IMG/VR virus record: IMGVR_UViG_2802429250_000004
Length of the DNA: 41,302 nucleotides
Origin: a virus
Taxonomy: Duplodnaviria > Heunggongvirae > Uroviricota > Caudoviricetes
Reading direction: 5' to 3' (one strand)
Both the position numbers and the translations under genes were made by a program. Below the pieces are notes generated by a model. It did not search any database. It was given only the letters and a program-made list of their open reading frames with translations, and was not told where the DNA came from. This document shows positions 5,404 through 39,144 of the stretch, in pieces (position 1 is the first letter of the stretch; every line of letters starts with the position of its first letter).

Positions 5404-6080
5404 GCGGCGTTTTCCTTAATTTGATGAACATTATTGATGCCGTAGTAATCACAAACAGTGGCATCGACAAAAGAGAGATCGTTATCAATCTCATTGGAAT
5501 CAAACATTCCCATTGGGGATTTAACAGTGTCTGCACCGTTGTTTTTTGTGGTGAAAAAGAACTGGTCATCACGGGTAAGGGTGCGAAGAACTATAGTAAA
5601 CATGCCTTCGACAGTGATTTTCTCGTCCAGCATTTTGCCGATAGTTTTCATTTTCACGCGCCCCATAGGGGTTTCTTCGGTGTGCGCAAGAAAATAGACT
5701 CTCAGGTCATCAGGTGCATCCTGTGCAGCCTTAATCACCTCCCATGCGTGGCGGCCTATCTCAGTAAATTTATCAAACGATTTTTCTTCTGAGCGGCGCA
5801 TAAACTCATTGCTCATCACATACTGGAAGTCATCAACAATAACGATTCTTTTCCCGTATTCGTGAGCACGCTTAATTACGGCAACTATTACGTCCCATTT
5901 GTCAGTGGTAACTACGGTTCCTTTTTTTGCACCGTAATCCCATGCAAGCCAATCTTTTGATTTAAATGGTAGCGGCTTGCCTATTGGTTTTATAAGAATT
6001 GCTTCCTCTGGATTGATATTTCTCATGCTGGTTGATTTTCCGGTGCCAGATTCACCGAGTATTAATGTCGCAGTTCCCAT
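5400..6080 (-). CDS. sak4: Sak4-family RecA-like recombination ATPase
   Basis: 226 aa with Walker A GESGTGKST near the N-terminus and Walker-B-like IVIVDDF; size and organisation of phage Sak4 single-strand annealing proteins; GAGG RBS. Confidence 0.75.
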   Translation of the reverse strand: MGTATLILGESGTGKSTSMRNINPEEAILIKPIGKPLPFKSKDWLAWDYGAKKGTVVTTDKWDVIVAVIKRAHEYGKRIVIVDDFQYVMSNEFMRRSEEKSFDKFTEIGRHAWEVIKAAQDAPDDLRVYFLAHTEETPMGRVKMKTIGKMLDEKITVEGMFTIVLRTLTRDDQFFFTTKNNGADTVKSPMGMFDSNEIDNDLSFVDATVCDYYGINNVHQIKENAA

Positions 6081-6088
6081 AATTTGCC

Positions 6089-6289
6089 TCAGAATGGTAA
6101 TTCGGATGGGGCGGAAAGAAATTCGCGCTCATTCATGCGCTCTCTTTGCGCCTGCCATAAGCAAAGTTGTTTCTTTGATTTATCTCCCGCTTTACGCCAG
6201 TAACGAGCCTCAGCAATGTGATATTCTCTTTTTAATCGACTTAACTCTGGAGTTTTCGCCAGTTCTACCGGAATCATTTTGACCTCCAT
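6089..6289 (-). CDS. Hypothetical small protein
   Basis: 66-aa ORF; a second in-frame ATG at 6275-6277 is preceded by GGAGGT and may be the true start. Confidence 0.4.
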   Translation of the reverse strand: MEVKMIPVELAKTPELSRLKREYHIAEARYWRKAGDKSKKQLCLWQAQRERMNEREFLSAPSELPF

Positions 6290-6387
6290 TTTCTGTAGGC
6301 TTCGACGGCCTCACGAAACATCTTTTCGTCGCCAATAAAAGCGGCGATAGTGAATTTAGTCTGGATAGCCATAAGTGTTTTATCCAT
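6274..6387 (-). CDS. kil: Kil-like small protein (putative host division inhibitor)
   Basis: 37 aa (MDKTLMAIQTKFTIAAFIGDEKMFREAVEAYRKWRSK), ATG at 6385-6387 with GGAG RBS; sits immediately downstream of cIII as lambda kil does; resemblance to lambda Kil is from memory. Confidence 0.45.
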   Translation of the reverse strand: MDKTLMAIQTKFTIAAFIGDEKMFREAVEAYRKWRSK

Positions 6388-6520
6388 TTTTGGGGACTCC
6401 TGGCTGATTAAGTATGTCGATAAGGCGTTTCCATCCGTCACGTAATTTACGGGTGATTCGTTCAAGTAAAGATTCGGAAGGGCAGCCAGCAACAGGCCAC
6501 CCTGCAATGGCATATTGCAT
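6380..6520 (-). CDS. cIII: CIII (FtsH inhibitor protecting CII)
   Basis: 46 aa MQYAIAGWPVAGCPSESLLERITRKLRDGWKRLIDILNQPGVPKNG, matching lambda CIII as I recall it (truncated a few residues at the C-terminus); AAGGAG RBS. Confidence 0.7.
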   Translation of the reverse strand: MQYAIAGWPVAGCPSESLLERITRKLRDGWKRLIDILNQPGVPKNG

Positions 6521-6606
6521 GGTGTGCTCCTTATTTATACATAACGAAAACGCCTCGAGTGAAGCGTTATTGGTATGCGGTAAAGCCGCCAACAGGCGGC
6601 TATTTG

Positions 6607-8032: not shown

Positions 8033-8572
8033 ATGAGTAACTGGTGGCAGGAACTGTTACGCTTCTTCCTGCGTGGTCTTACGCTACAACAGTTAATTCA
8101 TATGCTTATTATTTTAATTGCCTTGATAATAATTACCCCAGCATCAATTAAAGAGTGGGTAGATATAAGGAACCCCGAAATACTTCCAGATCACTGGATG
8201 TATTACGCAATGCTTTTGTGTATCAGTTATGTTCTGAACAGGGTGATGGAGTTTATATTTCTGGCATCTTCAGACAGATATAAAAAATATCTCAGTAAGA
8301 GAGATGAGGCTAAAGTAATTGTGGAGACTGAGCGCCTGTTCAATTCTCTGAGTATTCAGGAAAAAGAGGTTTTAGCATTTGCTGTTATGGCAAATAACAA
8401 AATCGTACTTAAGCACGGCGATCCGGTCGCTTTATCTCTTATGAGAAAAGGCCTTCTCCATCGCTCAGGTGTGACTTACAGCGCGTCAGGTAAAGAGAAA
8501 TTTGTTATACCTGACGTCTGGTTCTATGAGTGTTATATGCGCTTTGCTGGTAAAGCTGATGAGCTAATTTAG
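8033..8572 (+). CDS. Membrane protein, SieB-like superinfection-exclusion candidate
   Basis: 179 aa on the opposite strand to the surrounding operon; two N-terminal transmembrane helices followed by a soluble domain, as described for the SieB family; GGAG RBS 8 nt upstream of ATG 8033; family assignment not verified. Confidence 0.45.
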   Translation: MSNWWQELLRFFLRGLTLQQLIHMLIILIALIIITPASIKEWVDIRNPEILPDHWMYYAMLLCISYVLNRVMEFIFLASSDRYKKYLSKRDEAKVIVETERLFNSLSIQEKEVLAFAVMANNKIVLKHGDPVALSLMRKGLLHRSGVTYSASGKEKFVIPDVWFYECYMRFAGKADELI

Positions 8573-9311: not shown

Positions 9312-10316
9312 TCACGCATTAGGTTGCTGTTCATCTGGTTGTTGAATTGATACGGCTCCAGTTCTTTTTTGATCTCGTTCAGGTGCTGTTCCGCTTTTCT
9401 TGCCAGATTGCGACTTTCTTGGATCTGGCTTTCCAACATTTTGTTGAGAATTTCCATCTCCGGTTGCAGATTCTTCGGCATTAGTATTGTCCTCTTTATC
9501 TTGTGTAGTAAGAGGGAAATCCATCACCCTTGGTTTTCCAAACGTTGGGATTTCACCACTATGAATCTTATCACAGAAAAAATTATCGAGTATTTCTGTT
9601 ATACCTTTAGGACATTCAACACACTTGAAAAGTTCCTTGGCTTCTTTTCTGTCGATAACAAATCCATGTGAAGGATACGAAGCGATGAGTTTGCTTAACG
9701 CCCCTTCTTTTAGACTACTTGGCTTGTCTGCTAACCGTTGACCATAAGTGATAGCAATGCTCATCGCACGCTGATGCTCACCAAGTTTTATTGGATCTAT
9801 CTGAGCAGCCATGGGGGCTATCAATGCCTCTGTAAGTCTGGTTGCGATGTCAGCAGATATTTTAGTGCTTATCTGGTTTTCGTATTTTATCTGAACAAGG
9901 TATGAGTTAAACGCTGAAATAGAGCGCTCCTTCAGTGCATCGAGAGCTGTCATAATGGCTAAACCAGAGCTCATCTCACCTATTTCATCGTTTTTTTTCA
10001 GTTGGATATCTAATGGCCCGAGCTCACCCATGTCACCAATAACAAGTTTATTCGCAGCTATGGCTATTAGTGTACCAGCACTTTTGCACGGCCCAACAAC
10101 TAAAAGTGTTACCGTTTCATAATAGTGCTGGAGAGCCCTACCTATACGATAACCAGCATTAGGATCACCGCCATAAGTAGCAACACAGAAGATAACATTC
10201 TCTTTTAATCCATGTTGTGACTTACGCTTCTTGATTTTATTGGTTAGATCAAGATAACCATCACGATGAATATCGCCTATATACACATAAACATCATTAT
10301 TTTCAATAGTATTCAT
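9312..10316 (-). CDS. ClpP/S49-fold serine peptidase-like protein (SDH/SppA-like) in the rexAB-equivalent slot
   Basis: 334 aa; core …VIFCVATYGGDPNAGYRIGRALQHYYETVTLLVVGPCKSAGTLIAIAANKLVIGDMGELGPLD… aligns by eye to the ClpP motif block (…INSPGG…AG…GQAASMGA…) with a Ser in the nucleophile position; low-complexity charged C-terminal tail; AGGGAG RBS; co-directional and immediately downstream of cI; AT-rich. Confidence 0.6.
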   Translation of the reverse strand: MNTIENNDVYVYIGDIHRDGYLDLTNKIKKRKSQHGLKENVIFCVATYGGDPNAGYRIGRALQHYYETVTLLVVGPCKSAGTLIAIAANKLVIGDMGELGPLDIQLKKNDEIGEMSSGLAIMTALDALKERSISAFNSYLVQIKYENQISTKISADIATRLTEALIAPMAAQIDPIKLGEHQRAMSIAITYGQRLADKPSSLKEGALSKLIASYPSHGFVIDRKEAKELFKCVECPKGITEILDNFFCDKIHSGEIPTFGKPRVMDFPLTTQDKEDNTNAEESATGDGNSQQNVGKPDPRKSQSGKKSGTAPERDQKRTGAVSIQQPDEQQPNA

Positions 10317-10459: not shown

Positions 10460-11167
10460 CTACCAGCTATGTGATGACCAGAATACTCTGCCAATAATCC
10501 TTACTGTTTCATGAAACTCATCTCTATCCATTACTTCATCAGGGTACTCTTCGCGATTTATTGATCTGATTATCACGGATGTAGGTGTGGCTATTAATGT
10601 CTTTACTCTTAGTAAATCAGATTGACAAATAGCGTAGGTTTTACCATCTCTGATGGTGGTGTCTTGCGTGTTGACTCCAACAACATCACCATCGTGAAGG
10701 GTTGGCTCCATGCTTTGGCCTATCACCCTAACCAGCTTGGCAGAGCTTTCAGATACCCCCATCTTTTTCAGATAGTACTTTCTGAAAACCAAAGAGAACT
10801 CAGATGATTCCTCTAACTCACAGCTACCACTCCCGGCGGAAAGAGAAACATTAAGAAGAGGCAATGCGACAAACTCGTCATCGTTTCTTTTTATGTCTTC
10901 CCATACCACCGCTTTTAACGATGACTCACGCACATTCGATGGCTCTTCATGTGCACCATCCCTCATTTCACCAATACCTGAGCTAAGCCATTCAGGGCGT
11001 ACTTTTAAAGCATTGGCTAATTCAACCATCTTGCGAGATCCGTTTGTTTTACCGGATGACATCTTCTGTATGGCTGGCTGAGATATTCCAACCATGTCAG
11101 CAAGCTGTGATTGCGACACACCTGCTGAGCTCATGGCTGCATTTAGTCTTTCTGCGAATGTTTTCAT
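10460..11167 (-). CDS. cI: CI-type prophage repressor (HTH-XRE plus S24 LexA-like peptidase domain)
   Basis: N-terminal HTH (…QSQLADMVGISQPAIQKM…), Ala-Gly cleavage site (LSAGSGS) and C-terminal S24 motif GQSMEPTLHDGDVV; ATG at 11165-11167 has no RBS, consistent with a leaderless PRM transcript as in lambda. Confidence 0.85.
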   Translation of the reverse strand: MKTFAERLNAAMSSAGVSQSQLADMVGISQPAIQKMSSGKTNGSRKMVELANALKVRPEWLSSGIGEMRDGAHEEPSNVRESSLKAVVWEDIKRNDDEFVALPLLNVSLSAGSGSCELEESSEFSLVFRKYYLKKMGVSESSAKLVRVIGQSMEPTLHDGDVVGVNTQDTTIRDGKTYAICQSDLLRVKTLIATPTSVIIRSINREEYPDEVMDRDEFHETVRIIGRVFWSSHSW

Positions 11168-11278
11168 ACCCACAAATCTATAACTACGGTTATCCAAAGT
11201 AAAATAATAAAGGTTATTGCTATTTTTTATAACTTGAGTTATCTTTGGTTATAAGTAATGACCACAAGAGGTATGCTC
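11168..11278. promoter_or_regulatory. OR operators with divergent PRM/PR
   Basis: Intergenic region between divergent cI and cro containing palindromes ATAACTACGGTTAT and ATAACTTGAGTTAT (same ATAAC-N4-GTTAT motif as OL); exact promoter hexamers not resolved. Confidence 0.5.
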
Positions 11279-24058: not shown

Positions 24059-26224
24059 ATGGCCGACGAAAACAGACTCAATTCCATTCTGTGTAAGTTT
24101 GACGCGGACTGGATGGCGAGCGATGAAGCCAGAACCGAGGCGACAAATGACCTGTATTTTAGCCGAGTGTCGCAATGGGATGACTGGCTATCAAACTACA
24201 CGACCCTGCAATATCGCGGACAATTCGATGTTGTTCGCCCGGTGGTCAGGAAACTTGTCGCAGAGATGCGACGGAACCCTATCGACGTTCTCTTCCGACC
24301 CAAAGACGGCGCTAATCCTGATGCAGCCGATGTGTTGATGGGGATGTATCGTACTGATATGCGCCATAACACGGCAAAAATTGCCGTTAACGTTGGCGTT
24401 CGTGAGCAGATAGAGTCCGGTGTTGGTGCATGGCGTCTGGTCACGCAGTACGAAGACAACGATCCAACAAGCAACAATCAGGTAATCCGACGCCTGCCAA
24501 TCCATGAAGCCTGCTCACACGTCATATGGGACGCCAACAGCAAGCAGATGGATAAGAGCGACGCTAAGCACTGCACGGTGATTAACGCCTTGTCACGCAA
24601 TGGCTGGAAAGAGTTCGCAGAGGATTACGGTATTGATCCTGACACGCTGCCATCTTTCCAGAATCCAAACGATACATGGCTGTTTCCGTGGGTATCGAAT
24701 GATGTCGTCTACGTCGCTGAGTATTACGAGGTAGAAGAGAAGAAAGAGAAAGTCTTCATCTACCGCGACCCGCTGACAGGTGAGCCGGTCAGCTATTACC
24801 AGCAGGATATCAAAGACGTCATCGACGACCTAGCTAATCGTGGATTCATTAAGGTAGCAGAGCGCAAGGTGAAGCGTCGGCGTGTGTATAAGTCGATCAT
24901 CACCTGCACGCAGATACTGAAAGACCGCGAGAAGATAGCCGGAGAGCATATTCCAATCGTTCCAGTGTATGGCGAATGGTCATTCGCTGGTGACAAGGAG
25001 TGCTACGAAGGAGTGGTAAGGCTGACGAAAGACGGTCAGCGCCTTCGTAACATGATCATGTCATTCAACGCCGATATTGTTGCTCGTTCACCGAAGAAGA
25101 AACCGACCTTCTTCCCTGAGCAAATCGAAGGCTACGAATACATGTACGGTGGAAATGATGACTATCCGTACTATCTGCAGAACAGGACCGATGAAAACGG
25201 TAACGACCTGCCGATTGGTCCAATCTCCTACATGGAAAACCCTGAAGTGCCGCAAGCCAACGCTTACATGCTTGAGGCAGCCACCAACGCAGTGAAAGAG
25301 GTGGCTAGTCTTGGCGTTGATGCGCAGGCGGCAAATGGTCAGGTCGCTTTCGATACCGTCAATCAACTGAACATGCGGGCAGACCTTGAGACATACGTGT
25401 TTCAGGATAACCTGGCTACCGCAATGCGACGTGATGGCGAGATTTATGCCTCAATGGTCAACGATATTTATGACGTTCCTCGTCATGTAACGCTGACACT
25501 TGAAGATGGAAGCGAGAAAGACGTTCAACTCTATGCGCAAGTTGTCGATTATCAGTCCGGCAATGTGGTCACACTCAACGACATTCGCGGTCGCTATGAG
25601 TGCTATACGGACGTTGGGCCATCCTTCCAGAGCATGAAGGAACAGAATCGCGCAGAGATTCAGGAGTTGCTAACCAAGGTTCCGCAAGGTACTCCAGAGT
25701 TCCAGATGCTGATGCTGCAATACTTCACGCTGCTTGACGGTAAAGGCGTCGAGATGATGCGAGAGTACGCGAACAAGCAACTGGTGATGATGGGGCTGAA
25801 GAAACCAGAAACACCTGAAGAGATGGAGATGGTGCAGCAGGCACAACAACAGCCGCAGCAGCCATCAGCAGAGCAAATTCAGGCGCAGGGTATCCTTCTG
25901 CAAGGTCAGGCTGAATTGCTCAAGGCAGAGAACCAACAGGCGCAGATTCAGGTTGAAGCGGCCAAGGTTGAAGCCCAAAACCAACTCAACGCCGCGAAGA
26001 TTGCAGAAATCTTCAACAATATGGACCTCGACAAGCAGGCAGAACTGCGTGAGTACCTCAAGCTCGTAGGTCAATTCCAGCAACAGCGCAGCAAAGATGC
26101 TCGTGCTAACGCTGAGCTGCTTCTTAAAGATGCAGACCAGACTCATTCACAACGCATGGATTTCGCGAATCTTATGCGTCAAGTTCAAATCCCCTCCGGC
26201 GGAGTAGCCGAGACACCTCAATAA
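24059..26224 (+). CDS. gp1: Portal protein (P22 gp1-like)
   Basis: 721 aa directly after the large terminase; Gln-rich C-terminal coiled-coil barrel (…[18 protein letters not shown]…) typical of the P22 portal. Confidence 0.9.
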
Positions 26225-26237
26225 GAGAGAGTTAATC

Positions 26238-27149
26238 ATGGAACAAACCACCGACATTCAGGCTTCTGAAGAATTAACCCTGCCCGGCAATCATGCAGCG
26301 GCATCTGCTGATGGCTTAGTTGTCGATAATGCCAACGACATCGCAGGTCAGGAAGAAGGCTTCGAGATTGTCCTGAAAGACGATGAGAAACCAAAACAAG
26401 ACCCGGCAACTAATGCTGAATTTGCCCGTCGCCGCATCGAACGCAAACGCCAGCGTGAGCTTGAGCAGCAGATGGAAGCGGTTAAGCGTGGAGAGTTGCC
26501 GGAGCACCTGCGGGTGAACCCTGAGTTACCAAAACAACCAGACCCTAACGATTATCTTTCCGAAGATGCACTGGCTAAGTACGACTATGACCAGAGCCGC
26601 GCACTGGCTGCCTTCCAGCAGGCAAACAGTGAATGGCAGATCAAGGCTATGGACGCACGAAGCCAGGCTGTCGCCGAGCAGGGTCGCAAAACTCAGGAGT
26701 TCACCCAGCAATCAGCGCAATACGTCGAGGCAGCCCGTAAGCACTACGACGCAGCGGAAAAGCTCAATATCCCTGACTATCAGGAGAAAGAGGACGCATT
26801 CATGCAACTGGTGCCGCCAGCAGTCGGTGCCGACATCATGCGCCTCTTCCCGGAGAAATCCGCTGCTCTCATGTATCACCTTGGTGCTAATCCTGAGAAA
26901 ACACGCCAGTTGCTGGCGATGGACGGGCAATCCGCGCTGATTGAACTCACTCGACTGTCAGAACGTTTAACTCTCAAGCCTAGAGCCAAGCCTGTTTCAG
27001 AAGCCCCGTTACCTGATGAACCCATTCAGGGACACGCTGTTGCTGCAAATATCTCTGCGATTGAAAAGCAGATGGAGGCGGCAGCAAACAAAGGGGATGT
27101 AGAGACGTACCGCAAGCTCAAGGCGCAACTGAATAAAGGAATTCGATAA
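26238..27149 (+). CDS. gp8: Scaffolding protein (P22 gp8-like)
   Basis: 303 aa (same length as P22 gp8), charged and helical; between portal and coat. Confidence 0.85.
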
Positions 27150-28444
27150 TGGCATTAAATGAAGGTCAACTGGTCACGTATGCTCTGGATGAAATCATCG
27201 AAACCGTCCAGAACCTGACGCCAATGGCGTCCAAAGTGACAAAATACACCCCTCCGGCAGAATCCATGCAGCGTTCAAGCAACACCGTGTGGATGCCTGT
27301 TGAGCAGGAAGCGCCAACCCAGACTGGCTGGGATTTAACTGGCAACGCAACCGGGATTCTGGAACTCTCCGTGAAATGCAACATGGGCGATCCGGATAAC
27401 GATTTCTTCGAGCTTCGTGCAGATGACCTGCGTGATGAGCGTTCTTACCGTCGCCGAATCCAGGCATCCGCCAAAAAACTGGCGAATAACATTGAGTCAG
27501 CGATTGCCAAACAGGCAACTGAAATGGGCTCGCTTGTTGTTCACGATACCCGCGCAATTGGTCCATCTACTGGCCTGTCTGGCTGGGATTTTGTGTCTGA
27601 TGCAGAGCGCCTGATGTTCTCACGTGAGCTAAACCGCGATATGGGCATCAGTTACTTCCTGAACCCTGACGATTACCGCAAAGCAGGCCGCAACCTGGTA
27701 GATGGTGACATCTTTGGGCGCGTTCCTGAAGAAGCGTATCGCAACGGTACCATTCAGCGTCAGATTGCTGGCTTTGATGAAATTCTTCGCTCACCGAAAC
27801 TTCCGGCAGTTACCAAGTCAACCGCTACTGGTGTAACTGTTTCTGGTGCGCAGAAGTTTAAGCCGCAGGCATACACTCTTGATACCGATGGTAACAAAGA
27901 GAACGTCGACAACCGTGTTGCAACGGTGACCGTATCCTCCACCACCGGATTTAAGCGCGGCGACAAAATCAGTTTCACTGGTGTGAAATTCCTGTCTCAG
28001 ATGGCGAAGAACGTGCTAACTGATGATGCGACTTTCTCAATCACCCGTGTGATCGATGGTACTCACATCGAAATCACGCCGAAACCGATTGCACTGGATG
28101 ACGCGTCACTGACAAAAGAAGAGAAGGCTTACGCTAACGTAAACACCTCTCTTGCTGATACCACTCCGGTAAACGTTCTGAACGTGGCAACAACCACCGC
28201 TAACGTGTTCTGGGCTGATGACTCAATCCGCCTGCTGTCTCAGCCGATCCCGGTAACCCATGAACTGTTTGCTGGCATGAAAACGTCTTCCTTCAGCATT
28301 CCTGGTATTGGTGTTAACGGCATCTTCGCAACGCAGGGTGATATCAACACTCTGTCTGGTAAGTGCCGTATTGCTGTGTGGTATTCAGCATGTGCTGTAC
28401 GACCAGAGGCAATTGGTGTTGGTCTGCCTAACCAGACCGCGTGA
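27149..28444 (+). CDS. gp5: Major coat protein (P22 gp5-like)
   Basis: 431 aa [54 protein letters not shown]…, recognisably P22 coat-like with moderate divergence. Confidence 0.9.
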
Positions 28445-35836: not shown

Positions 35837-36226
35837 CTAACATTTTCTTTTTACTTTTCCAACAAAAGCTTTGGTTGAATCCATATTTCCATAACCGGAA
35901 ATGGTTTTTGACATTAAAACTGTTCCAGTAGGATGTATTACCCATGAGTCGATAACGCGTTGAGTTTCGCCATTCGCGCCGATTCCTATGATGGAGTTTT
36001 TAGACAATACTTTGTAAGCCATGCCGCCCGCATCTGTCCCAGAATATGTGATGCTAGCATCTTCACCGCTTGTCTTAATGATGAATGTTCCACTAAAACC
36101 ATCTTCTTCCGGATGGAAATTATTTCGTTCTGAATAGCTTATTCCGCGCATATCTCCAACGACCCAGCACTCTGCTGTAGCCCCAAAAGATATGAATAAG
36201 AACATAGCAGCAAGAAATTGCTTCAC
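35837..36226 (-). CDS. Secreted (periplasmic) protein of unknown function, at the P22 sieA position
   Basis: GTG start at 36224-36226 with AAGGAGG 5 nt upstream; N-terminal signal peptide MKQFLAAMFLFISFGATA followed by about 110 mature residues; convergent with gp16. Confidence 0.5.
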   Translation of the reverse strand: MKQFLAAMFLFISFGATAECWVVGDMRGISYSERNNFHPEEDGFSGTFIIKTSGEDASITYSGTDAGGMAYKVLSKNSIIGIGANGETQRVIDSWVIHPTGTVLMSKTISGYGNMDSTKAFVGKVKRKC

Positions 36227-36256
36227 ACCAACCTCCTTAGTTTTGCGCAGGATACC

Positions 36257-36622
36257 ATGAAAAAAGTTAACATTGGAAACGTACCAAAGATGCTCGTACC
36301 GCTCTTTGAGAGCGGTACGATTGTATTTTGCAGAGACTTTCCAGAATGGCAACGCCTGCATCAAAAACTTGGCGTGGACGTGCGGGACTCGGATGCCAAC
36401 GGAGCGTCTCATACAATGAGCAGCGAGAATGGTGTTTTGCATGTGATAGGTGTGTTCAATGGCAAACTATCTACTATTGCCCATGAGTGCGCTCACATGG
36501 CATTCGATATCTGCTCGAGGGTCGGTGTTGATGTTGAACCAGGAAGAGCCAACGAGACTTACTGCTACTTAATGAGCAGGCTTGTTGAGTTCTGCGAGCG
36601 ACATATCAAAAAGCCGGAGTGA
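36257..36622 (+). CDS. Small HExxH-motif protein (putative zinc metallopeptidase-like)
   Basis: 121 aa from ATG 36257; contains IAHECAHMAFD (HExxH) with a downstream Glu; divergent from the secreted protein gene with about a 30-bp gap. Confidence 0.5.
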   Translation: MKKVNIGNVPKMLVPLFESGTIVFCRDFPEWQRLHQKLGVDVRDSDANGASHTMSSENGVLHVIGVFNGKLSTIAHECAHMAFDICSRVGVDVEPGRANETYCYLMSRLVEFCERHIKKPE

Positions 36623-36635
36623 ACCGGCTTGATTA

Positions 36636-36815
36636 TTACTTTTTGCTGTCTGGAGTTCGCTTATCCAATACCCAGCCATGACCTGGCTTTGTTGTTGGCG
36701 GAAGCCTTTCGTTGTCCTTGACGGTGGCAAAATTGTCTTTCTTACCGCCGCGCGGGCCAACTTCTTGGTATATTCCGCCGTTTTTTCCTGTGTTTTCACC
36801 TGGTTTTTTCGCCAT
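36636..36815 (-). CDS. YjzC-like small protein
   Basis: 59 aa MAKKPGENTGKNGGIYQEVGPRGGKKDNFATVKDNERLPPTTKPGHGWVLDKRTP… with a G-x-Y-x-E-x-G … W pattern reminiscent of the YjzC family; GAGGT RBS. Confidence 0.45.
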   Translation of the reverse strand: MAKKPGENTGKNGGIYQEVGPRGGKKDNFATVKDNERLPPTTKPGHGWVLDKRTPDSKK

Positions 36816-36905
36816 GATATACCTCAACATGCACCCGTTATTGGGCGATTAAATATTGATCTCATTTTATGAGTAGTCAATATGGTCCAAAAAAGGCAAA
36901 AATTA

Positions 36906-36928
36906 ACCCACCTTCAGGTGGGTTTTTT
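36906..36928. terminator. Bidirectional intrinsic terminator
   Basis: Perfect 7-bp stem ACCCACC/GGTGGGT with loop TTCA, flanked by T-runs on both strands; about 30 nt past the ClpP-like stop. Confidence 0.5.
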
Positions 36929-36953
36929 ATAAGGAGTAATCATGATTTACCCA

Positions 36954-37490
36954 TCAAACAACCCACCAGTTTGCCTGATTGGATACCAGCCTTGCAGTTT
37001 TTATGGAATTAATTATGCCATGCTCAAGAGCCTTGTTAGCATCCAAAATGGTCGAGTCTGCTATCAGGGATGCCCACCTAATATGGGTTCCGATGTCGAT
37101 ATTGAACGTCTCAACGAAGCGATCAAGATCGTTATCGAGGCATTTCCCGTACTCTCTCAATCTGGCATGGTCGGCGGCTGGGGTGGCAAAGCCCCATAAT
37201 AGAGGATGTAACAGGAATCTTGATAATGGGTTTGCGAAACGTTCTGAGCCAGCGAGGAAAACGATATTAGCTATGGATTCAATATTGCTTATGTTGTGAG
37301 TTCTAACGGTAACAGGGAGTGACTTAAGAAAGTTATACGCAGTAAAGCCAGCGGCAGTTTCCCCTCCCTGACTTGATATATGGATATTTAATTCAGTTGC
37401 GCCTTGAGATAATGCGGTGAGACAGTGGTTCTGAAGTTGCCCAACAGTGGCAGTATTAACGGGGCATAAGAAATGAATTGTGTGCAGCAT
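36954..37490 (-). CDS. ClpP-family serine peptidase-like protein, translationally coupled to mnt
   Basis: 178 aa; aligns by eye along most of ClpP: …ISSQGGETAAGFTAYNFL… (ClpP INSPGGVITAGMSIYDTM), …ESIANIVFLAGSERFANPLSRFLLHP… (ClpP …[30 protein letters not shown]) and …ADSTILDANKALEHGIINSI (ClpP …DRFLSAPEAVEYGLVDSI); Ser/His/Asp candidates present; its ATG overlaps the mnt stop (TAATG). Confidence 0.65.
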   Translation of the reverse strand: MLHTIHFLCPVNTATVGQLQNHCLTALSQGATELNIHISSQGGETAAGFTAYNFLKSLPVTVRTHNISNIESIANIVFLAGSERFANPLSRFLLHPLLWGFATPAADHARLREYGKCLDNDLDRFVETFNIDIGTHIRWASLIADSTILDANKALEHGIINSIKTARLVSNQANWWVV

Positions 37491-37741
37491 TATTTTTCAT
37501 CCTTACCATACATGGTCTTTAGCGTCTCAACATCATGTTCAAGATCTATCAATCGTGATGCTATAGTTGCAAGGTCTAGTGCTTGAATGTGTTTATTTTT
37601 TTCGGTCCATGCTTCAAGTGCCGCGACCATCTCAGCATTTAATGAACGAGAATTAGCCTCAGCCAGTTCAATAAGACGTTCCTTTATCTCTACAGGAAGC
37701 CTCAGATTCACTTGAGGGTTTTTGTACTTACGATCAGACAT
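37490..37741 (-). CDS. mnt: Mnt-like ribbon-helix-helix repressor
   Basis: 83 aa from ATG 37739-37741 (same length as P22 Mnt); N-terminal RHH …VNLRLPVEIKERLIELAEANSRSLNAEMVAAL… parallels P22 Mnt (…FNFRMPMEVREKLKFRAEANGRSMNSELLQIV…); divergent from arc. Confidence 0.7.
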   Translation of the reverse strand: MSDRKYKNPQVNLRLPVEIKERLIELAEANSRSLNAEMVAALEAWTEKNKHIQALDLATIASRLIDLEHDVETLKTMYGKDEK

Positions 37742-37846
37742 CGGCACATCCTGAATAATTTTTTACCACAGGATATGTAGGTATCTATTGACTATCAATG
37801 CGTACCTAAATACTATGTATGCGTACCACATACAACGGAGGATGCA
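37742..37846. promoter_or_regulatory. immI control region (divergent Pmnt/Pant with operator candidates)
   Basis: Intergenic region between divergent mnt and arc containing the palindrome ATTGACTATCAAT and a duplicated ATGCGTACC element. Confidence 0.4.
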
Positions 37847-37987
37847 ATGAAGGTAAAAACACTGCGTATGCCAGAGAAGTTAGAAAAAATCCTTGAAGAG
37901 AAAGCAAAGGAAGAGTGTCGCTCATTTAGCGCAGAAGTAATTAAACGAGTGTTGGACAGTCTGAAGAGGGAGGGGATAACGGTGTGA
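37847..37987 (+). CDS. arc: Arc-like ribbon-helix-helix repressor
   Basis: 46 aa MKVKTLRMPEKLEKILEEKAKEECRSFSAEVIKRVLDSLKREGITV, paralleling P22 Arc (…FNLRWPREVLDLVRKVAEENGRSVNSEIYQRVMESFKKEGRI…); GGAGG RBS. Confidence 0.7.
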   Translation: MKVKTLRMPEKLEKILEEKAKEECRSFSAEVIKRVLDSLKREGITV

Positions 37988-38220: not shown

Positions 38221-39144
38221 ATGAAAAGTATAGCAACAGCAGTATCTACTATCAATGTACCATTCCACGGCGCAGAGCTTTATGTTGTCAATCACAACGG
38301 CGAACCGTATACCCCAATGAAACCTATCGTTGAGGGAATGGGTATGGATTGGGCTTCACAGTTTACAAAGTTAAAACAAAGATTTGCTAAAGGTATTGTG
38401 GAAATCGCAATACCTTCAGTTGGCGGTGTGCAGACCATGATTTGCCTTGCTTTACGTAAACTGAATGGCTGGCTGCAAACCATCAGTCCAAACAAAGTAC
38501 GCCCTGAAATCCGCGACAAGGTAATCCAGTATCAGGAAGAGTGTGACGATGTGCTATACGAGTACTGGACTAAAGGTCATGTAGTTAACCCACGCAAAGC
38601 TAAAAAGGCGTTGCCGGGTAAAATCACCACTGAACAGCAGGAAGCCATTAAACAACTCGTCATGAGTCGCGGTCAGTCTCTGCCAAAAGAAAAACAGGCG
38701 AAGGCGATGATCACCATGTGGTCGTCACTGAAATCCCATTTTGGATGTTCGTACAAAGAAATCAGTGAGGAGCAGTTTACCGAAGCACTGTCACTTGCTG
38801 CTCGCGTTCCGCTTGAAGGAGAGTTCATCGGCAAACAAGATAAGAAAACCAACGAGCTTTCTGCAAAAGAAGCAAACAGTCTTGTATGGTTATGGGATTA
38901 TGCCAACCGCTCACAGGCATTATTCCGCGAATTGTATCCGGCGCTAAAACAAATTCAATCGAACTATTCCGGCAGATGCTACGACTATGGTCATGAGTTC
39001 TCGTATGTTATCGGAATGGCGAGAGACGTTTTAATCAATCACACACGAGATGTTGATATCAATGAGCCAGACGGACCAACGAATCTTTCCGCATGGATGA
39101 GACTTAAGAATAAAGAATTACCTCCTTCAATACATAACTACTGA
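38221..39144 (+). CDS. ant: Antirepressor (AntA-domain)
   Basis: 307 aa; N-terminal …[39 protein letters not shown]… typical of the AntA/AntB antirepressor N-terminal domain; downstream of arc as in P22 immI. Confidence 0.7.

Follow-up and report, generated by a model that had tools for sequence, protein, structure and literature searches.

Accessory ClpP paralogues that work only in mixed barrels, such as ClpP2 of Pseudomonas aeruginosa, ClpP1 of Listeria (Ser-His-Asn), and the ClpP1P2 systems of mycobacteria and chlamydiae, have an altered active site or ATPase-docking face and gain their function by pairing with a canonical ring. ClpP1 of Pseudomonas plecoglossicida (PpClpP1; PDB accession number 9UXT) is an N-terminally truncated form with a Ser-His-Pro arrangement that, on its own, assembles into a homo-14-mer with a 42.7 Å pore, fails to bind ClpX, and has a peptidase efficiency 13-fold below that of its canonical paralogue, an activity that needs the Ser and the His and for which the third residue is dispensable (PMC12900304). 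Together with canonical ClpP, it yields a complex of ~300 kDa, the size expected for 7 + 7 subunits, and this PpClpP1P2 hybrid, whose canonical subunit mediates the binding of ClpX, is quicker to degrade model substrates than is the canonical enzyme alone (PMC12900304). The paper makes no mention of phages (PMC12900304). Here, we describe a gene for a short ClpP protein of this type in a P22-like Escherichia coli prophage (IMG/VR record IMGVR_UViG_2802429250_000004), whose whole stretch of 41,302 nucleotides (nt) we call the window and along whose full length coordinates are counted unless another locus is named. The gene is an open reading frame (ORF) of 178 amino acids (aa) at 36954..37490 on the minus strand, and it begins on the stop codon of an mnt repressor gene in the immI region.

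A short ClpP paralogue under purifying selection

The 178-aa ORF is a genuine gene that is under selection and encodes a short ClpP of the PpClpP1 type. It matches Pfam CLP_protease (PF00574) with an E value of 1.6e-11 and 44.9 bits against a curated cutoff of 20.2, and its AlphaFold2 monomer model, which is confident (predicted local distance difference test score of 94.2; predicted template modeling [TM] score of 0.90), aligns in Foldseek with E. coli ClpP at a TM score of 0.83 (probability of 1.00, 21% identity), in agreement with the ClpP-family assignment made in an earlier reading of the letters and their ORFs (the sequence-only reading). The best match in the PDB is 9UXT both by sequence (9uxt_A, E value of 6e-35 over residues 3-175) and by structure (TM score of 0.94, root mean square deviation of 1.5 Å, 38% identity), and the protein has the other marks of the PpClpP1 type, namely, a length of ~180 aa, an N-terminal truncation, a Ser-His pair, and a nonacidic third residue. 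Compared with the copy in a Pectobacterium prophage, dN/dS (the ratio of nonsynonymous to synonymous substitution rates) is 0.078 at a dS of ~1.6, indicating strong purifying selection.

For the residue comparison, 24 family members were aligned with an E. coli ClpP reference sequence, and larger alignments comprised 66 proteins of the prophage clade and 116 of the Pseudomonas clade. Ser72 and His95 align with the catalytic S97 and H122 of ClpP and are invariant in all 182 sequences. The catalytic Asp171 is replaced by S146 in the window, by Ala, Ser, Thr, or Gly across the prophage clade (A34/S29/T2/G1), and by Pro in 104 of the 116 Pseudomonas-clade proteins; Asp145, next to S146 in the window, is variable across the prophage clade, and Arg170 of E. 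coli ClpP is not conserved there. An alignment to ClpP across the Ser, His, and Asp regions, as originally proposed, is thus borne out for the Ser and the His but not for the Asp. ClpP residues 1 to 23, the N-terminal axial loops, have no counterpart in the 178-aa protein, and the gating loops are missing family-wide. Positions Y60, Y62, F82, I90, and L114, which from ADEP/IGF-loop structures we take to belong to the pocket for ClpX, ClpA, and ADEP, are replaced by N, H, S/T, H, and N, mostly polar residues, so the elements for docking ClpX or ClpA are not retained. In both clades, the handle helix starts with an invariant Asp-His, and proteins of the prophage clade end in a conserved N-W-W-V tail that is predicted to form a beta-strand. 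As judged from these alignments, the protein is a ClpP core with the handle and the Ser-His pair, minus the Asp, the gating loops, and most docking residues.

Loss of the docking-pocket residues and the N-terminal loops would also suit a poison or decoy subunit, one that joins host ClpP, lowers ClpXP/ClpAP activity, and so stabilizes some phage or host proteins in the lysogen, and a hybrid barrel could indeed bind an ATPase on one face only. The invariance of Ser72 and His95 across the 182 sequences, however, argues for retained catalysis, and the PpClpP1P2 hybrid shows a gain rather than a loss of activity (PMC12900304), leaving a poison subunit improbable in our view.

A role in virion assembly is scarcely credible. 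The best PHROG match is phrog_94, "head maturation protease" (1.8e-20), and the copy in phage phiv205-1 is annotated in GenBank as a prohead or virion maturation protease, but the score against NCBIfam NF045542 is 49 bits where the cutoff is 120. Moreover, the gene is situated in the immI repressor operon, on the strand opposite the virion genes; the head module of the window (portal, scaffold, and coat; 24059..28444) contains no such gene; and relatives are antisense to late operons. P22-type heads mature without a protease. We rejected the head-protease assignment on the NCBIfam cutoff and the genomic position, and the view of the sequence-only reading that morphogenesis does not explain the gene is upheld.

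Organization of the mnt operon

The Mnt-type ribbon-helix-helix repressor gene occupies 37490..37747 on the minus strand, as an 85-aa ORF from a GTG at 37747 (Pfam Arc, 3.3e-10). Its true start is likely the ATG at 37741, giving 83 aa, which has an AGGA 7 nt upstream and agrees with the annotation of phage CUS-3, in which the gene annotated mnt is 97% identical in DNA to that of the window. The TAA stop of mnt (37492..37490) has one base in common with the ATG (37490..37488) of the ClpP-like gene, so that the two overlap as TAATG at 37488..37492 on the minus strand (CATTA in plus-strand bases). Beyond the ClpP-like gene, a G+C-rich hairpin, AACCCACC-TTCA-GGTGGGTT, at 36905..36924 is terminator-like on both strands by score and RNA fold; this predicted terminator is placed to end both the mnt/ClpP-like transcript and a convergent one, and the identical hairpin in phage Emek is annotated there as a terminator. 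Hence, the sequence-only reading was right about the arrangement of the pair, both in the overlapping stop and start codons and in the two-way terminator at its end.

The last ~13 codons of mnt (..ETLKTMYGKDEK; 37493..37530, minus strand) are conserved, as seen in megablast match ranges and alignment, and mark a switch point from CUS-3-type mnt DNA to DNA common to all ClpP-linked cassettes. Base composition around the ClpP-like gene is not atypical (GC content of 0.40-0.46, as in the surroundings) and therefore gives no compositional sign of recent import.

On the other side of mnt, a consensus scan places divergent, overlapping promoter-like sites at 37798..37770 (minus strand) and 37788..37816 (plus strand), and an inverted-repeat search finds an 18-nt imperfect palindrome, around which they lie (37774..37791/37795..37812). 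At this consensus level, the sites at 37770..37816 are candidates for Pmnt, Pant, and an operator. They are followed on the plus strand by an arc-like gene of 46 aa (37847..37987; Pfam Arc, 3.7e-08) and the antirepressor gene ant of 307 aa (38221..39144; P22_AR_N, 8.5e-45; P22_AR_C, 1.1e-29; phrog_245, anti-repressor Ant, 4.5e-99).

Distribution and association with mnt

At ≥95% identity, the ClpP-like gene is present in 128 of 5,426 complete E. coli genomes, every time on the chromosome, and many of these carriers are clinical and animal isolates. RefSeq names the E. coli copies "ATP-dependent Clp protease proteolytic subunit," and in 38 of 40 sampled E. coli rows, an "Arc family DNA-binding protein" overlaps the match. 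The gene also occurs in six isolated coliphages. Its carrier phiv205-1 is classified as a Lederbergvirus (P22-like); EC.P3 and E212 have immI and tailspike-region DNA in common with the window; and the PhiR12 phages carry lambda-type tail genes, with the complete cassette of ClpP-like gene, mnt, arc, and ant inserted between tail genes L and K in PhiR12_1 (locus L001, 4048..6060). The TAATG junction is identical in PhiR12_1 and phiv205-1.

A scan of IMG/VR for the ClpP-like gene returned 80 loci. The clade at ≥80% identity includes 33 loci in which the stop codon of a Mnt-type ORF overlaps the start codon of the protease gene as TAATG. Thirteen distinct Mnt sequences, representing about six DNA-binding types, are found at these 33 loci, and all of the linked alleles finish with the same ~13 codons (..LKTMYGKDEK). 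Ten of the 33 are located between the lambda L and K tail genes, and most others are near gp16 and/or tailspike genes. The Pectobacterium prophage copy, at 80% protein identity, retains the same layout and the TAATG even though its synonymous sites are near saturation. The coupling of mnt to the protease gene is not a matter of chance, because the TAATG recurs behind about six Mnt alleles and in this nearly saturated copy. Given the L/K-flanked cassettes in PhiR12_1 and in the 10 IMG/VR loci, the cassette must move between podovirus-type and siphovirus-type genomes.

The remainder of the family differs. None of the 43 IMG/VR loci at ≤73% identity has a Mnt-type gene within 1.5 kb, and none has Mnt, Arc, or Ant within 4 kb. 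Co-occurrence with mnt, which the sequence-only reading proposed to analyze, thus characterizes the ≥80% clade, with its 33 TAATG-linked loci, but breaks down at the 43 more distant ones, and the repressor link is a trait of one lineage and not a property of the family.

These loci bear on two further explanations. One is that the protease is an immI-specific regulator that removes Ant (or Arc or Mnt) after translation, as a proteolytic level of antirepressor control, and guards lysogeny against Ant from superinfecting relatives. In its favor, the ≥80% clade is always accompanied by the mnt-arc-ant cassette, even inside a lambda-like tail operon. The immI-free loci nonetheless show that the function of the family does not need immI, and a protein without docking sites has no evident means of selecting a folded substrate, such that we give this explanation little credence. 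The other is that a Mnt-like ribbon-helix-helix antitoxin and an ungated protease toxin constitute a toxin-antitoxin (TA) or abortive-infection pair. A ribbon-helix-helix gene with a stop/start overlap is the usual type II TA layout, and the conserved last 13 mnt codons travel with the protease gene; but most family members lack a ribbon-helix-helix gene or any conserved partner, the same C-terminal motif occurs in Mnt proteins without a protease gene (CUS-3), about six Mnt alleles precede one nearly identical protease, Mnt has a known role of its own, and there is no match in PADLOC. With obligate co-occurrence failing at 43 of 43 loci, a type II TA pair was rejected, and a TA function of any kind strikes us as very remote.

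Stand-alone relatives and the genomic slots of the family

A same-strand upstream partner was also sought in the stand-alone clade, where the ORFs in this position are heterogeneous and none is conserved. The exception is a 182-aa same-strand ORF, 79 nt away, at seven near-identical loci (L087-L093), which is not seen in other clades. Stand-alone relatives are mostly antisense to both neighbors, with gaps of ~100 nt, and occupy one of three sites: between the lysis cassette and the terminase genes of lambdoid prophages; between N and erf/ssb in Proteus prophages, which is the position and orientation of sieB in the window (8033..8572, between N and erf/ssb); and between the tail-fiber and lysis genes of a Chromobacterium prophage. 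A sigma-70 consensus search upstream of these relatives yielded no convincing promoter. In two stand-alone clades, whose proteins are 52-59% identical to that of the window, the motif AATATTTCATGTTGAAT lies ~60-90 nt before the start codon (about 4910..4940 in L004-L006 and about 4925..4945 in L011-L012), and it may be a promoter or regulatory site; in L004-L006, the motif comes after a hairpin terminator.

The place 3′ of mnt is itself variable. Emek has mnt, then two small coupled ORFs (orf77 and orf69), and then the hairpin terminator of the window; in CUS-3, mnt is followed by another mnt and then by three additional genes. The tandem mnt genes of CUS-3 (L003, 3707..4236), one of which is the window allele and the other P22-Mnt-like, may confer dual immI specificity. 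In P22, we take sieA, orf59a, and mnt to share one orientation. The three genes are neighbors in that phage, and a putative promoter has been assigned to sieA (PMC10461980). The assertion that mnt stands alone in P22 therefore fails, and Emek and CUS-3 likewise carry genes after mnt. The slot after mnt is a variable cargo space whose best-studied occupant is a superinfection-exclusion gene, and it can be regarded as a general cargo slot of immI cassettes.

In the window, three small cargo-type ORFs are present at 35837..36830, between the gp16-like ejection-protein gene and the terminator; they belong to phrog_2651 (minus strand), phrog_1365 (plus strand), and phrog_3202 (YjzC-like; minus strand). 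Two more hairpin terminators fall within this region (36294..36320 and 36611..36630), part of which is common to Emek and ST-35.

Within the Enterobacterales, we conclude, the family is prophage cargo (moron-like) and not an immunity component, because it occupies a variable slot, is bounded by a terminator, and has relatives that are mostly antisense to their flanks. Occupancy of slots known for exclusion genes is also what one might expect of a stand-alone, chaperone-independent peptidase, which would assemble into an open-pore 14-mer with no need of host ClpP and, in the lysogen, break down peptides or unfolded polypeptides, such as proteins that an infecting phage injects in unfolded form. 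The absence of N-terminal gating loops from every family member fits such an enzyme, as do the 14-mer, the 42.7 Å pore, and the measurable peptidase activity of PpClpP1 alone (PMC12900304). That solo activity is, however, the one found to be 13-fold below canonical ClpP (PMC12900304), and carrying an ungated protease in the cytoplasm should come at a cost, yet the gene persists in the 128 E. coli genomes; we consider a self-sufficient peptidase unlikely, though worth keeping in mind.

The genomic context of PpClpP1 orthologues is of another kind. The two that were checked are chromosomal, with genes for KGG-repeat stress proteins and a DUF6555 protein as neighbors, a locus that rules out PpClpP1 as a prophage-borne protein. 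This neighborhood is conserved in Pseudomonas chromosomes (loci L017-L022, around 6001..6552) and suggests a stress or stationary-phase role for the PpClpP1 orthologues, which is not discussed in the paper reporting 9UXT.

A second Clp-fold gene, next to cI

The window contains another gene of this fold: an SDH/SppA-type Clp/crotonase-fold gene of 334 aa (9312..10316, minus strand), directly downstream of a cI-type repressor gene (10460..11197). Its product carries ..TYGGDPNAGYRI..GPCKSAGT.., with Cys77-Lys78-Ser79 and Gly49-Gly50 invariant, and has a subthreshold SDH_protease match. The family numbers at least 1,565 proteins, which are named "SDH family Clp fold serine proteinase" or "SppA protein." The structural model is confident for the N-terminal ~100 residues, and its best matches are the 1510-N stomatin-specific protease, SppA, ClpP, and crotonases; there is no match in PADLOC, and the PHROG of the protein carries no function label.

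The SDH-type gene occurs in 28 of the 5,426 E. coli genomes and in just 2 isolated phages, and among the accessions listed for it and for the ClpP-like gene (128 genomes), none is shared. In strain E308, an SDH gene that is 99.4% identical resides in a prophage with myovirus-type baseplate genes, which has no immI genes in the stretch corresponding to the immI region of the window. A conserved pair of Clp-fold genes was rejected on these two grounds. That a Clp-fold gene follows each of the two repressors, as pointed out in the sequence-only reading, is accurate for the window but does not describe a conserved pairing; the cI-adjacent gene is real and assorts independently of the ClpP-like gene.

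Discussion

The 178-aa protein is most likely the product of a lysogen-expressed cargo gene that would act on or through the host Clp protease. P22 Mnt is a prophage-expressed repressor of ant. As the distal gene of the mnt operon, the ClpP-like gene would depend on the mnt promoter for its transcript, which would run as far as the 36905..36924 hairpin, and on coupling to mnt for its translation, so that its product, sharing transcription and translation with the maintenance repressor Mnt, would be made alongside it in the lysogen. The subunits could then form heptameric rings of the ClpP type and stack on a ring of host housekeeping ClpP; ClpX or ClpA would dock only on the host ring of such a hybrid barrel, and Clp-dependent proteolysis in the lysogen would shift in rate or in range. 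Joining of host ClpP rings is supported by analogy with PpClpP1, which does so with its housekeeping ClpP. That the protein is an accessory ClpP subunit whose hybrid rings alter Clp proteolysis in the lysogen to the benefit of the prophage is the interpretation that we favor, with a confidence that stops a little short of even. The benefit might consist of exclusion of, or defense against, incoming phages, as could be supposed because the gene sits in sieA-like and sieB-like positions, or of control over lysogeny and induction. The fuller proposal, in which a phage-borne ClpP subunit rewires host ClpXP/ClpAP in the lysogen and thereby excludes other phages or controls induction, is more tentative and, as a whole, rather doubtful.

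Several observations weigh against the accessory-subunit interpretation. Identity to PpClpP1 is just 38%, and the orthologues of that protein are chromosomal, making any transfer of function an extrapolation. Promoter-like sites are not enriched in the window (7 found versus 5.6 expected from shuffles). Damaged copies of the gene, which are 5′ truncated, shortened, or interrupted, occur at four IMG/VR loci (L060, L062, L063, and L073) and in two E. coli matches (H19 and H79), with the 5′-truncated ones retaining residues 40-178, 56-178, or 62-178; in some prophages, therefore, the gene is being lost or is decaying and is dispensable. A search of PADLOC-DB 2.0 found no match for the protease, Mnt, or their neighbors at E values up to 0.1, although this is weak evidence given that the library dates from 2023. 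Nor did we find expression, assembly, or phenotype work on the prophage clade in the literature.

The kind of protein is already known, because hundreds of genomes carry the annotated gene and both a structure and biochemistry are available for a relative with 38% identity. Our literature search on prophage, moron, or P22-like ClpP turned up no account of an alternative ClpP subunit being provided by a prophage. What we find to be undescribed is that Enterobacterales acquire a short ClpP subunit through temperate phages, that one lineage of it is firmly tied to Mnt, a link found with many immunity alleles and in two virion types, and that the gene sits in exclusion-gene slots. The RefSeq label of the E. 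coli copies hides both their prophage origin and their atypical active site, and the whole immI cassette moves between podovirus-type and lambda-type genomes.

Phages are known to counter host proteases with inhibitors, such as T4 PinA and T7 gp4.5 against Lon and lambda CIII against FtsH. If the fuller proposal is true, a phage would instead take over a host protease by subunit replacement. Should hybrids form, ClpXP/ClpAP substrates, which could include RpoS, SOS, and phage replication proteins, would behave differently in carrier strains. Hybrids would also be relevant to ClpP-targeting antibacterials, as illustrated by bortezomib, which works through the short paralogue in P. plecoglossicida (PMC12900304).

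Among known systems, canonical E. coli ClpP (MEROPS S14) has in common with the 178-aa protein the fold, the Ser and His positions, and the handle helix, but the latter is without propeptide and axial loops, has Ser or Ala in place of Asp171, and has a largely polar ATPase-docking pocket. Phage head maturation proteases (phrog_94 and NF045542) share the ClpP fold as well, although the 178-aa protein is encoded in the wrong module and on the wrong strand for such a role and has no scaffold or capsid fusion partner. P22 sieA and orf59a are comparable in position, lying like the ClpP-like gene between an ejection-protein gene and mnt, with expression from the prophage presumed. SieA, however, resides in the membrane, where it blocks the injection of DNA, is served by its own putative promoter (PMC10461980), and has no sequence relation to the ClpP-like protein, whose gene, unlike sieA, is separated from mnt by no intergenic space and would rely on mnt transcription and translation. 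Accessory ClpP paralogues of bacteria are host chromosomal genes, whereas the gene of the window is on a temperate phage and tied to a repressor operon, and among sequence matches to the 178-aa protein, these paralogues rank well below 9UXT or are absent. PpClpP1 resembles the protein in its length of ~180 aa, in missing ~20-35 N-terminal ClpP residues, and in keeping the Ser and the His with a non-Asp residue in the third position; the two differ in that this third residue is Pro in PpClpP1 and Ala or Ser in the prophage clade, which is further distinguished by its conserved N-W-W-V tail.

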